Shown piece after piece: positions 4,540-23,658 of a stretch of DNA of 64,000 nt. The stretch is from NCBI GenBank assembly GCA_949284445.1, contig CASDVP010000003.1, forward strand, positions 139,051 to 203,050, written 5' to 3'. The notes below the pieces were generated by a model, which searched no databases, was not told the DNA's origin, and saw only the letters and a program-made list of their open reading frames with translations. A program made the translations under genes and the position numbers. The first letter of the stretch is position 1. The number at the start of each line of letters is the position of its first letter. This stretch comes from an uncultured Bacillota bacterium (lineage in GTDB: Bacteria > Bacillota_I > Bacilli_A > RFN20 > CAG-288).

Positions 4540-4614
4540 TAAACGAATCTTATTTTACTTGTAAAATTGTTTCATTCACAACTAATAACCTTACTGACTT
4601 CGAACTAGTTTAAA

Positions 4615-4706
4615 AAACCTTGCAGTCATCTATGAAAAAGAGATAAAAGAGGCATATTGTTCGCCTAGAATAAATCTCTTTTTCTATTCTGCAAGGTTTT
4701 TTGATG
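4615..4706. terminator. Long bidirectional stem-loop terminator between the VWA operon and the island
   Basis: AAAAAACCTTGCAG ... CTGCAAGGTTTTTT is a 10+ bp inverted repeat with A/T runs on both sides, with a nested AGAATA/TATTCT stem. Confidence 0.45.
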
Positions 4707-4752
4707 CAAGAGCTTCTTTTATTTATTTAAATCTTAATATTATCTCGACTAG

Positions 4753-5484
4753 CTATTTAGACTCTTTTATCCGTTGTTGCCAAAGATTATAAATATTAGT
4801 GACGGCTTCATCGTACAATTGAAATGAGGATTTATCTATATCTTGATCAGTGTTCTTTAGTCTCAAATATTCGTCATGCAACTCAAGACTCAAGGAATAA
4901 CCAGATTTATAGTGATAATGATATGATTCATCGCCATCATCACCGATGTTATCTTCTAGCCATTCTATTTTTTCAATTGTAGCATCGTTATTGCCGCCAT
5001 GTGTCGACTACACATATGAACCATTTTTATATTTTTTAGCATATTTTTCTGAAAGCATGCCTTTGCTGTCTCTCACATCTTGAAAAATAGCAAAATCAAG
5101 GCAATGCACAATATTCTTATCTTCTTGATCAAAAAACTTAACTCTTATGGCCGAGGCCCTGTCTTCAATCGCTTCGTATCCATATTTTTTAAATGCGGTT
5201 TGAATCGCAAAATAAAACTTATTTCGTAAATCTTTAGCCTCCCACTCCTTATCATCAATCGGACGGCTAACATATAGATTGATACCGAAATCAAAGCCTT
5301 TGTTTCCAGCTGTTCTTCTAGTGATAAAAACTTCTTCACTTTGATCAAAGCTACCGACACAGCTCCAATCAAACTCGATTCCTGCCTCGTCGATAATTTT
5401 TGACATTTTCCGAATGCATGATTCAACTTAATGGATAACTGGCTGATAATCTTTCAATGGAATATACTCGAAAATTTTATCCAT
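4753..5484 (-). pseudogene. Disrupted gene of unknown family: a 244-codon frame with an in-frame TAA (5430..5428) and an in-frame TAG (5010..5008)
   Basis: An AGGAGGA RBS lies 4 nt before the ATG at 5484. After 18 codons (MDKIFEYIPLKDYQPVIH) there is a TAA. The same frame continues through MSKIIDEAG...KNGSYV, then a TAG, then 84 further sense codons to the TAG at 4755..4753. The distal 84-codon segment contains no Met or alternative start, so it can only be the tail of a once-continuous gene. Confidence 0.6.
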
Positions 5485-5694
5485 AAGTCCTCCTTCTCTC
5501 TAAAAATTATTTTAGATATATCAAACACTTTAGTATATCTGTTCAAAACAGCCTATTATACTTTTAAAATTTAGCTTTGCCGATAAGAGATCTTACAAAA
5601 TCAGATGATTAGAGGCTTTATATTCTATTTTATTTCCGATTCTCAATAGAATCTTGACTCTAGTGTTATTTGAAGAGCGAAAATATTATCTCTA

Positions 5695-6936
5695 TTAAGA
5701 CTTACTAGAAATGAAGTCAGATGAATTTCCTTTATATGAGGCTAAAAATGTTATCGGATCTAATTCAAAATTATCTTCGATCTCGCCGTTAACACGATAA
5801 AAAGAAACATCAGTAGAATTCACATTATATAAGCGATACACAAAATAGGTTTCTTTATCTTTTTTAGATGCTTCTATTTCTCCCTTTGACACCTGAAATT
5901 TAGTATCCATTTTGCTTTGTGTTGTTTTTACTTCAATATGAATTTCTTTGACCACGCCATCAATTATGTCGTATGACTTGATGTCATAACCATAATAATC
6001 AGATTTAGTTGATATCCATTCAATCTTATCAGCGTATTCGCTCAACAAGTCATCTTTAGCCAATCTATCTTTTTCATATTCTAAAACCAGTTGTTCTCCG
6101 ATCAATCCGATTTTAGCATCTTCTTTGGCCTTCTTTAAATAATCTATTTTTCTTGGAATAGGAGACGTGATTCTTTCAAATTTTTGACTCCTATCAACTT
6201 TAGGCTGCACCTCATTTAATTTTCGGTTCAAATCATATGGCGTTGTGCCTTCTTCATCGATGCAGTCCTTGATGTCTTTCTCTGCAGTATCTATATCTAT
6301 TAACAAACCGTTTCCATTGATCAATCTTTCATATTCTAAAATGTTTTCGATTATTTCATCATATTTATTCGTTTTAAAATGATTGATGATAAAATCATAT
6401 ATTTTCACCATCCCACTTAAATCATTAAGCAATTCTTTTTCATCAAATCCGTTAGATGGATAATACTTTGAAATTATCGTGGTTTTCTCATAGCCATATC
6501 CTAATGATGCTTTTTTTGCCTTCAAATCGATTTGCTCTTTAGAAAAACGATCATCACTGATCTCTGATTTAATATAGTTAGAAACAAGTTCAGCAACCTT
6601 ATATTTTCTTCTGCCATATGTCTTTTCAAAATATGTTATACCTTGCATTAAAACAAGATAAAATCCCTGCATATCACTTCTAAATAAATAACAGACATAA
6701 ATACCATTTTGTGTTGAATTAGTTATGTTTTTATTCAAAATAGAAATCCATGGATAGTCTGTCTTATTGCCTTGCCCCATAGAACCTTTGACTAAAAGCT
6801 CTTTTCTCTGTCCTAAATTAAGAAGTATCTCTTTTGGTAATTCGCGAACTAATTCTTTATATAATGCGCTAGTATTATCTACTTTATTAGAAAGAGATAA
6901 GTATCCATTTAATATATTTTGAAATAATTTTTCCAT
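5695..6936 (-). CDS. MrcB_N-like (DUF3578) plus DUF3883 (NOV-C REase-fold) fusion; putative single-chain modification-dependent (type IV-like) restriction/defence nuclease
   Basis: The N-terminal motif KGSMGQGNKTDYPWISILN matches the GSxGxGxxxxxPWI signature of DUF3578. The C-terminal IGEQLVLEYEK ... GYDIKSYD ... IEVKTT ... FQVSKGEIE ... YFVYRLYNV matches the DUF3883 core. The ATG at 6936 is preferred over the TTG at 6963 used by the track. Confidence 0.55.
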   Translation of the reverse strand: MEKLFQNILNGYLSLSNKVDNTSALYKELVRELPKEILLNLGQRKELLVKGSMGQGNKTDYPWISILNKNITNSTQNGIYVCYLFRSDMQGFYLVLMQGITYFEKTYGRRKYKVAELVSNYIKSEISDDRFSKEQIDLKAKKASLGYGYEKTTIISKYYPSNGFDEKELLNDLSGMVKIYDFIINHFKTNKYDEIIENILEYERLINGNGLLIDIDTAEKDIKDCIDEEGTTPYDLNRKLNEVQPKVDRSQKFERITSPIPRKIDYLKKAKEDAKIGLIGEQLVLEYEKDRLAKDDLLSEYADKIEWISTKSDYYGYDIKSYDIIDGVVKEIHIEVKTTQSKMDTKFQVSKGEIEASKKDKETYFVYRLYNVNSTDVSFYRVNGEIEDNFELDPITFLASYKGNSSDFISSKS

Positions 6937-7226
6937 AGTTATTACCAGGATAGCAAAAAACAAGCTATTTTAATAGATCAAAATTATCGCAAAAGGTTTA
7001 CTATGTATAAAAAGCGAATTATTCAAATTCAAAATCGAGTTATAAAGACTTCCTTTATTTTCAGTGTTAGCCAGTTCAAATAAAGAATTAAATATCATTA
7101 CAAATCTATCAAATAACGGAGAAATAATATCACTTTATACAACCGATTTGCTTCTCCATCAGATAATTGATAAGAGCTACTTCACGGCGGAATACAGTCT
7201 GTTCTTTAACAATCGCATAACCTCTT

Positions 7227-7601
7227 TTAAGAAAAAAAACCTTTTGCAGTTATCGATGCTTCAACAGTGATTTTATATTTTGCTTGTTTTTCAAGTTTGT
7301 CGCAAATCATAGAAGCTATTCCGCGATGTTGAAATTCGGGCAAGACATACAAAAGATTTATATGCCCATCTTTAGTGATATCACCAAATCCCACAGCTTC
7401 ATCATCACAATAAGCTAAAACAGAATAATGAGCTAAAAAGGTATCATTCCAACTGTTTCGCTCTATTCCAGAAAGCCAAGCATTTATTTGCTTTTCGTCA
7501 TAATCTTTTTTACAAGTTCCTAAGATTGAAAATTTAAAGATTTTAATGACATCATCACTATTTGATGATTTATATTTTTGTAGATCTAAATCTTTACTCA
7601 A
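7227..7601 (-). CDS. GNAT family N-acetyltransferase (short form)
   Basis: Acetyl-CoA binding motif A is present (LLYVLPEFQHRGIASMI). TTG start preceded by a GAGGAGGAG RBS, with a TATAAT-like box further upstream. Confidence 0.55.
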   Translation of the reverse strand: MSKDLDLQKYKSSNSDDVIKIFKFSILGTCKKDYDEKQINAWLSGIERNSWNDTFLAHYSVLAYCDDEAVGFGDITKDGHINLLYVLPEFQHRGIASMICDKLEKQAKYKITVEASITAKGFFS

Positions 7602-7800: not shown

Positions 7801-7974
7801 TCAAACAAAGTTCAAACAGAAAATAAAAAAGCCCTAGAAATAGGGCATATTTCAGTCAAATACGGAGCAGCAGAGAGTCCCTTCAACCACTTGGGTACTG
7901 CTCCAAATAGAAGTAGAAAAGCAAAAACAATTATATTGTTTTCGAAGTTCTTTTACAACATATTTTTAATATGT

Positions 7975-8090: not shown

Positions 8091-8202
8091 ATTGCGTCAA
8101 ACGCGTTGAATATTATAAAGAAACTTATATTTAAAAGCAATATTTTTTTCATTTATTTTTGAAAAATGAGAAATGTCACCTATACTAATCACGAGGTGTA
8201 TT

Positions 8203-9408
8203 ATGGATATTTTAATCGTTTGTCTTTTATCATTAGCTTTAGTTCTTTTAATCATTTTATTAGTATTATTCTTAAAGAAAAAATCTGTGACTAGTAATAT
8301 CTCTAATTCTAACGATATTTTCATGAAGCTTGGAAATATCGAAACAGAAATAAAGAAACAAGTTGAAGATAATAAAACCATTATCAGCCTGACTACTTCT
8401 GAACAATACGATAAAATTTCAAAAGCTATCTCAGATGAGCTAACTAAAATCAATAACACTTTATCAATCACTTTAGATAGAGAGATTTCTCTTTTACAAA
8501 CAACACAAAAATCTATTCAAGATAATTTGAACAATTTGAATACAAAGGTCAGCGATTCAATAGATAAAGGATTTAAAAACAGCAATGAACAGGTGCAATT
8601 AGTAGTTAAATCGCTTGAAGAATTAAAAAGTGCGTCATTAAATCTTAAAGATCTCAGCCAAGACATTCAATCATTGAATCAATCTTTGAATTTTTCGCGC
8701 CCATCAGGCAAATTTGGCGAACAAGTTTTAGAGGCGGTTTTAAGATCTGTTTTTGGTGATACTAAAGATATCTTCGAATTGCAATATACCTTGATCAACG
8801 ACAATGACACCTCAAAAAGAGTCATCGCAGATGCGGTAGTTCACTTGCCACAACCACTTAATTTATTATGTATTGATAGCAAATTTTCATATATAAAATT
8901 CAAAGCATTATTTAATAATTCTGGAGATAATGCTTTGAAACAAGAATTTAAAATTGCTTTAAAAAATGAGATAAATAAAATCGCTGCTTCTTATATTATC
9001 AATGATAAAACAGCACCATATGCCATCATGTTTATACCAAATGACGGCATATTTGCTTATATCGAAGGCGATGATAACTTATATGCGCAAGTTGTCGAAT
9101 ATGCGTATAAGAAGAAAGTCATCATAACTTCACCTTCTACTCTTCAACCAATATTAGCTAATCTGAATCTTTTACGTATAAAACACGAGACAATAACGAA
9201 TATCGGCAATGTTCTAGAGCAAATCGACAAGGTTAAGAAAGCATTATTAAATTATCAAACGTCATGGCAAAACATTTCCAAAGCGATCGATGTTCTCACT
9301 GAAAAACGTGATGACTTTGATAAGAAAGTCAAGACATTAAATCAGAGATTAGACGGATGTTTAAGCGATAAAAGCAGCCAAGAGATATATGAGATCAAGA
9401 ATGATTAG
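8203..9408 (+). CDS. rmuC: DNA recombination protein RmuC
   Basis: N-terminal TM helix, long coiled-coil, and a conserved C-terminal RmuC block (FGEQVLEAVL ... DAVVHLPQ ... LCIDSKF ... AIMFIPNDGIFAYI ... VIITSPSTL). Start placed at ATG 8203 (MDILIV), which follows ACGAGGTG. Confidence 0.75.
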   Translation: MDILIVCLLSLALVLLIILLVLFLKKKSVTSNISNSNDIFMKLGNIETEIKKQVEDNKTIISLTTSEQYDKISKAISDELTKINNTLSITLDREISLLQTTQKSIQDNLNNLNTKVSDSIDKGFKNSNEQVQLVVKSLEELKSASLNLKDLSQDIQSLNQSLNFSRPSGKFGEQVLEAVLRSVFGDTKDIFELQYTLINDNDTSKRVIADAVVHLPQPLNLLCIDSKFSYIKFKALFNNSGDNALKQEFKIALKNEINKIAASYIINDKTAPYAIMFIPNDGIFAYIEGDDNLYAQVVEYAYKKKVIITSPSTLQPILANLNLLRIKHETITNIGNVLEQIDKVKKALLNYQTSWQNISKAIDVLTEKRDDFDKKVKTLNQRLDGCLSDKSSQEIYEIKND

Positions 9409-23584: not shown

Positions 23585-23658
23585 TGGTGCCCCGTGCCAG
23601 AATCGAACTAGCGATTGGTCCTTACCATGGACCCGTTATACCACTTAACTAACAGGGC
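23585..23658 (-). tRNA. tRNA-Thr (anticodon GGT), CCA encoded
   Basis: Minus strand GCCCTGTTAGTTAAGTGGTATAACGGGTCCATGGTAAGGACCAATCGCTAGTTCGATTCTGGCACGGGGCACCA. Anticodon stem GGTCC/GGACC with loop ATGGTAA, T-loop GTTCGATTC. Confidence 0.8.

Follow-up and report, generated by a model that had tools for sequence, protein, structure and literature searches.

The closest described systems to the gene reported here are the cGAS/DncV-like nucleotidyltransferases (CD-NTases) of the cyclic oligonucleotide-based anti-phage signalling systems (CBASS), such as DncV, CdnB, CdnE and CdnG (SMODS, PF18144), which are about 290 to 400 amino acids (aa) long, make a cyclic di- or trinucleotide signal and are encoded in one operon with an adjacent gene for a nucleotide-sensing Cap effector. 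Nucleotidyltransferases (NTases) of the Pol-beta type bind their catalytic metals through the two acidic residues of the DxD motif, and the usual inactive mutant of DncV is D131A/D133A. The window analysed here, a 64-kb stretch of DNA from an uncultured Bacillota bacterium, carries on its minus strand (4753..5484) the complete frame of a compact CD-NTase-like nucleotidyltransferase, 243 codons followed by a natural TAG (4755-4753), which is interrupted by two premature stop codons. Coordinates of this gene are window positions on the minus strand. We consider it highly probable that the gene for a compact cGAS/DncV-like nucleotidyltransferase of 243 aa was recently inactivated here and that the locus is its genuine pseudogene; the enzyme chemistry and the reason for the loss are the parts that we infer, the remainder being carried by the data.

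The family of this pseudogene differs from the CD-NTases of CBASS in its size of 215 to 250 aa, and the curated CBASS models give no significant match to the window protein or to its intact orthologue P0001. By predicted fold, the similarity to CD-NTases corresponds to a template modelling (TM) score of about 0.5 at 12-16% identity. The family is also without a conserved adjacent effector gene, the neighbour at the window locus being a gene for a protein with MrcB_N and NOV_C domains instead of a Cap effector, and the window clade has a glycine at the second catalytic aspartate. Other template-independent NTases of the Pol-beta superfamily, namely TUT1, TUT4, TUT7, GLD-2, Cid1, OAS and the poly(A) polymerases, a group of eukaryotic RNA-tailing enzymes with extra domains, score below the CD-NTases, and only about 143 of their residues align. 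The small NTase toxins and resistance enzymes MenT, LnuA and ANT(2'') are like the family in their minimal NTase fold and similar size.

Reading frame and allelic series

Translation of the minus strand from 5484 to 4753 yields M-DKIFEYIPLKDYQPVIH-*-...-GSYV-*-...-KESK-*. This confirms the first-pass annotation, which had described an ATG frame led by AGGAGGA whose codons 19 and 159 are TAA and TAG. The start codon (5484-5482) is preceded at a distance of 3 nt by the Shine-Dalgarno sequence AGGAGGA (5488..5494, read from the sequence), and it is confirmed by the N-terminus M-x-K-I-F-E-Y-V-P, which is kept by the homologues in the alignment. The first stop (5428..5430) corresponds to CAA (Gln) in intact orthologues and arises from C>T at 5430; the second (5008..5010) corresponds to TGG (Trp) in intact and intermediate alleles and arises from G>A at 5009. 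The remaining two minus-strand frames across the region contain many stops. In a database search, the stop-masked translation matches 243-aa proteins along 100% of its length (E 3e-155), and the long frame is thus not a product of chance.

The search with the masked protein retrieved P0001, a protein of 243 aa with 98% identity over the full length, and five relatives at 45-56% identity, all of which are uninterrupted. P0001 is encoded on the ENA metagenome scaffold L001, whose gene order is the same as that of the window (BatA/VWA, VWA, the NTase gene, MrcB_N+NOV_C, GNAT and RmuC), and a second intact copy is found on the contig L002 (CALVXU010000006.1) of a Bacilli metagenome-assembled genome (MAG). 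At the nucleotide level, L001 and L002 match the window with 99.0% identity over 7.9 kb and 98.9% over 5.0 kb, respectively. At codons 19 and 159, both read CAA and TGG instead of the TAA and TAG of the window. Between the two intact alleles there are four non-synonymous changes and one synonymous change. The 90% cluster additionally contains members of 217 aa, which begin at Met27. These are encoded on four contigs (L023-L026) with an intermediate allele, TAA at codon 19 and TGG at codon 159, from which the window diverges by 0.4%. Run ERR10610500 carries this one-stop allele, and ERZ16268064 the intact one. The allele with both stops is present in three further contigs (L020-L022), from ERZ16268238 (scaffold_32), ERR10610631 and ERR10610632, which match the window at every base along 6.0-7.9 kb and derive from at least two separate runs. 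TAA at codon 19 is shared by the window and L020-L026, and the alleles are nested: the first step from the intact form consists of Q19* with E34A, F42C and one synonymous change, and the second adds W159*, R18H and one more synonymous change. Such nesting is the pattern predicted by stepwise decay and would be very hard to obtain from sequencing error.

The possibility that both stops are sequencing or assembly errors in a gene that is truly intact had been raised as an alternative to a recent pseudogene. Both stops are single-base substitutions, the window data look like those of a metagenome, and the close matches all come from metagenome assemblies or MAGs. However, the same two stops recur base for base, at 100% identity, in three other assemblies, for which different assemblers and at least two runs were used; sister samples, seemingly from the same series by accession, show a consistent intermediate with TAA at codon 19 and TGG at codon 159; and no other gene of the window is split by a stop. 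Sequencing error is thus extremely unlikely, and the suggestion of a recent pseudogene is borne out by the intact, syntenic orthologues with about 99% identity and by the one-stop intermediate.

It might also be proposed that the stops are recoded or read through by a suppressor tRNA, an alternative code or programmed readthrough, which would result in a full-length protein, and the intact ribosome-binding site and start codon as well as the 84 open codons past the second stop would agree with this. In the window, however, the long stop-free stretches of at least 150 codons end in TAA (27), TGA (11) or TAG (8), and because all three stops terminate such stretches, the standard genetic code is used. 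Furthermore, both sites are occupied by ordinary sense codons in the orthologues, and no suppressor is found among the three tRNA and transfer-messenger RNA (tmRNA) genes of the window. After a very recent mutation the frame downstream is expected to be still open, and the intermediate allele is here only 0.4% away. We give recoding virtually no credence. A scan of the 64 kb for in-frame stops with long open stretches on either side revealed no other split gene. The one other strong candidate, at 35997 (minus strand), was rejected, as it marks the boundary between two neighbouring genes that have separate starts.

Other end points of the frame occur within the family. The intact alleles P0166 and P0170 (253 aa) have a glutamine codon in place of the natural TAG and are extended by 10 residues (…KESKQLVEIILRFK). 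On L005 (CASFQR010000014.1, 8085-8459), from another uncultured genome, the homologue is a 124-aa open reading frame (ORF) that covers residues 89-239 only, which looks like an independent 5' truncation of a family member.

Predicted fold and catalytic motifs

The window protein and P0001 have no match in Pfam, NCBIfam or PADLOC, 51 family members have no meaningful one in PHROGs, and a profile search against PDB sequences gave matches at chance level only. Among the same 51 members, distant ones gave weak matches to SMODS (1/51, 0.0022), to NCBIfam models (3/51, 0.0016) and to the CBASS-cyclase models of PADLOC (at most 5/51 for any one model, best 8e-8). Positions 4600-5700 had no megablast match among either the phages of GenBank or the plasmids of PLSDB; tblastn with P0005 found one GenBank phage record, annotated as 'hypothetical protein', and no plasmid. 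An exhaustive profile search (E<=1e-3) retrieved 386 family clusters at the 50% identity level, in which most full-length members have 210-250 aa. In the literature on stand-alone, orphan or element-borne CD-NTases, nothing was found about this family.

An AlphaFold2 model of the intact orthologue, built from a 51-sequence alignment, has a predicted local distance difference test score (pLDDT) of 94.1 and a predicted TM score (pTM) of 0.86; it supersedes a model from six sequences, which was unusable (pLDDT 63.6). Foldseek searches with the newer model returned ClCdnE and BfCdnB as top matches (E ~7e-7), ahead of dozens of entries for CdnE, DncV and cGAS, and the predicted bilobed fold, an NTase core with a C-terminal helical bundle, superimposes on DncV or CdnB. 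The weak resemblance to nucleotidyltransferases noticed in the first-pass annotation is thereby borne out, with a cGAS/DncV-like predicted fold and a GS...DxD...D motif at the family level.

Motif conservation was counted in an alignment of 112 family representatives. The G-S motif of Pol-beta-type NTases lies at codons 44-45 (5350..5355; G44 in 109/112, S45 in 103/112), the metal-binding DxD motif at codons 65-67 (5284..5292) and the third catalytic aspartate at codon 130 (5095..5097; 110/112). While the first aspartate, D65, is present in 108 of the 112 representatives, the second is replaced in the window, where the motif reads D-F-G; position 67 is D in 107, E in two and G in a single representative, that of the window clade. 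Every member of the 90% cluster, including the intact ones, has DFG or DLG at residues 65-67. The catalytic signature G-S/[DE]x[DE]/[DE] is consequently found at the level of the family and is broken by Gly67 in the window gene and its 90% cluster. The window clade deviates at two further conserved positions, S128 (to C) and N213 (to D). On the basis of Gly67, even the 'intact' proteins of this clade were probably impaired in catalysis before the stops arose. Residue 159, the site of the second stop, is Trp in 87/112 and aromatic in 107/112 representatives, and Y206, K210, N213 and S220 are near-invariant in the C-terminal lobe. In the model, a strand at residues 5-7 and a helix at 10-32 form the N-terminus, and helices 167-179, 198-212 and 220-242 lie past W159.

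Four longer proteins (P0016, P0037, P0062 and P0087; 376-444 aa) are tandem-duplicated versions of the family. Their N-terminal copy appears degenerate at GS and DxD, the C-terminal copy looks canonical, and the arrangement may be that of a pseudo-dimer.

Stepwise loss of the gene

The sequence of events starts from an ancestral NTase gene that is still intact in sister lineages. In the window lineage, C>T first turned Gln19 (CAA) into TAA, accompanied by E34A and F42C, and G>A afterwards turned Trp159 (TGG) into TAG. According to the structural model, Q19* would leave a peptide of 18 residues. A product re-initiated at Met27 would be without strand 5-7 and the greater part of helix 10-32 and would stop at residue 158, and W159* would remove helices 167-179, 198-212 and 220-242, that is, the whole second lobe with Y206, K210, N213 and S220. 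A working enzyme from the two-stop allele is, judged by the model, very unlikely. The loss was probably tolerated since the gene was already under relaxed constraint; as the clade already has Gly67 in place of the catalytic aspartate, nonsense mutations would have been tolerated.

Gene callers predict a residual ORF of 132 aa (M27-V158; 5008..5406, with the ATG of M27 at 5406), from which the N-terminal strand, half of helix 1 and the C-terminal lobe are missing. An identical protein (P0157) is listed in NCBI, ENA and Logan. A re-initiated product of 132 aa, or of 217 aa in the intermediate allele, could in principle be a functional, shortened nucleotidyltransferase: the ATG lies only 8 codons past the first stop, GS and D65/D130 are inside the fragment, and the 217-aa form persists in four assemblies. 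However, the GGAAA directly 5' of this ATG is a poor ribosome-binding site, most of helix 10-32 is gone, in the window the three C-terminal helices with Y206, K210, N213 and S220 are missing as well, and the catalytic D67 is already Gly, so that a functional product of this kind is very improbable. Further downstream, the final 84 codons had been described as being without a start codon. This is true for ATG and GTG; however, an in-frame TTG occurs at codon 198 (ORF 4753..4893). The possibility of independent starts for the downstream segments thus comes down to an ATG with a poor ribosome-binding site and a TTG with no Shine-Dalgarno sequence.

In comparisons with L001, L002 and L023, the ratio of non-synonymous to synonymous polymorphism (pN/pS) of the NTase gene is 0.46-0.69, compared with 0.07-0.32 for BatA, VWA and MrcB_N/NOV_C in the same block and 0.25-0.49 for a frameshifted GNAT gene. 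The raised value fits the direction expected of relaxed constraint and is no proof alone. Several points weigh against a recently inactivated pseudogene of this family: the pN/pS values rest on very few substitutions (2-6 per gene, and 3-9 in the NTase gene per comparison); ERZ16268238 may assemble an ERR106106xx run, in which case there would perhaps be two and not three independent observations of the two-stop allele; the truncated product may be expressed or retain residual function; and the assignment to the cGAS/DncV-like fold comes only from the predicted fold and the motifs.

In its features, the locus is like ordinary nonsense pseudogenes in variable or defence-type islets, with single-base C:G>T:A changes at CAA and TGG codons, intact alleles in sister strains and neighbouring lesions, and with a tendency, on few substitutions, to a raised pN/pS. 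Its one additional feature is that the intact, one-stop and two-stop alleles have all been sampled in public assemblies.

Gene neighbourhood

The gene upstream of the pseudogene (5695..6963, minus strand) is intact and encodes a protein with MrcB_N (Pfam, 4.9e-42) and NOV_C (DUF3883; 1.6e-14) domains, which looks like a type IV restriction enzyme judging by its domains. It matches PADLOC PDC-S36 (4.3e-35) and PD-T4-1 (1.2e-13), both of which we take to be single-gene candidates. The 210-nt intergenic gap upstream of the pseudogene holds a promoter-like site (5555..5583; TCGGCA, 17 nt, TATAAT) with 10/12 matches, the best in the region; promoter-like sites are no more numerous here than in shuffled sequence, and the assignment to the NTase gene is only suggestive. 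A terminator-like hairpin with a T-run (4650..4666) is located 3' of the pseudogene. Short plus-strand ORFs (45-52 aa) and an Rfam scan gave no sign of another feature at the locus.

It had been suggested that the interrupted gene might be the partner of the adjacent DUF3883 gene. The two genes could form a two-gene unit in the window clade, for example of a regulator and an effector or resembling a toxin and antitoxin, and the loss of the NTase would then be a selected change in the behaviour of this unit. In all examined loci of the 90% cluster, the genes lie side by side in the same orientation, and no terminator was detected between them. However, the NTase gene has its own promoter-like site, upstream gap and terminator-like hairpin, the MrcB_N-NOV_C gene is preserved, with low pN/pS, beside intact and broken NTase genes alike, and its product matches presumed single-gene candidates. 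In addition, intact orthologues beside a DUF3883 gene were found within the 90% cluster, but outside this clade no homologue had a NOV_C/DUF3883 neighbour in the contexts of P0002-P0006, eight genome loci (including L003-L009), 47 IMG/VR viral contigs and 80 metagenome loci. Taken together, a two-gene unit is improbable.

For the analysis of neighbours, 144 loci were grouped into 57 NTase clusters at 80% identity, among which no DUF3883/NOV_C neighbour recurs and the proposed partnership finds no support. The most common neighbour is a large serine recombinase (11/57), followed by the terminase large subunit (6/57); directly downstream, Abi_2 (6/57) and a ParB_N-N6_N4 methylase (5/57) occur, and PrgI, which belongs to conjugative type IV secretion, neighbours the NTase in two clusters (25 loci). 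No effector-like family recurs beside the homologues in these 144 loci. Because no adjacent effector gene is conserved, the family is not CBASS by the operon criterion. By gene context, it is single-gene cargo of phages and conjugative elements without a universal partner. Those members that have the full motif would be expected to act like CD-NTases in joining nucleotides, and they are carried singly by these elements and not in CBASS-type operons with an effector.

Surrounding region

Further lesions are found close to the pseudogene. In the GNAT acetyltransferase gene (7227-7601, minus strand), a homopolymer (about 7231-7239) has one extra base, which shortens the product to 124 aa. On the plus strand, the tract is A8 in the window, A7 in L023, L002, L024 and L025, and A6 in L001; the protein has 156 aa in L023-type loci and 140 aa in L001, and L020 and L021 share the 124-aa form. 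The tract is a second lesion or a length-variable tract within 2 kb of the NTase pseudogene.

At 7863-7904 (minus strand), a tRNA-Ser(UGA) gene survives only as a remnant, having lost 46 nt internally, which comprise the anticodon and variable arms as well as part of the T arm. An intact copy of 90 nt is present in L023, L001, L002 and L024, and ARAGORN makes no call for the gene in the window. L020 matches the window everywhere else, but at exactly this point of the tRNA-Ser gene (before TCTCTGCTGCTCCG) it continues into 77 nt of unrelated sequence, with which the contig ends. The break looks like an integration junction in the 3' end of the tRNA gene or an assembly artefact at such a site.

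The window is 96-100% identical to L001 and L002 per 250-nt block from position 1 to about 8100, where a pair of tRNA-Val and tRNA-Ser genes is located, and 72-86% identical from about 8250 over at least 5 kb, whereas its identity to L023 is 99.6% on either side. This comparison suggests that the left block, consisting of the Bat/VWA operon and the NTase, MrcB_N-NOV_C and GNAT genes, was recently exchanged between lineages of ~80% identity, with the tRNA genes as boundary. A gene of the RmuC family (8173-9408, plus strand) lies just past the tRNA pair, where the diverged region begins; RmuC domains are reportedly co-opted in the Shield anti-phage system. The window further contains a tRNA-Thr(GGU) gene (23585-23658, minus strand) and a tmRNA gene (44275-44672, plus strand) with the tag peptide ANKPVMFRAPAMMAAACC.

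Meaning of the locus

For annotation, positions 4753-5484 are best described as a pseudogene; an entry as a hypothetical protein of 132 aa would be wrong, and so would a reading as assembly error or recoding. The locus is a sampled example of stepwise decay, from an intact gene through an allele with one stop to an allele with two. It is also possible, though we propose it tentatively and regard it as somewhat doubtful, that the family is a new, compact, effector-less branch of cGAS/DncV-like enzymes comprising at least 386 clusters, which phages and conjugative elements carry as single-gene cargo and which has a role outside CBASS. Some of its members are tandem-duplicated, and many come from gut metagenomes. 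The role of such a branch could be element-borne counter-defence or exclusion, in which the protein makes or mimics a nucleotide signal or nucleotidylates a target; even then, the window copy would still be a dead member. The pseudogene itself is ordinary, whereas its intact relatives form a sizeable, uncurated family with the predicted CD-NTase fold and without a CBASS-type effector, which merits biochemistry.
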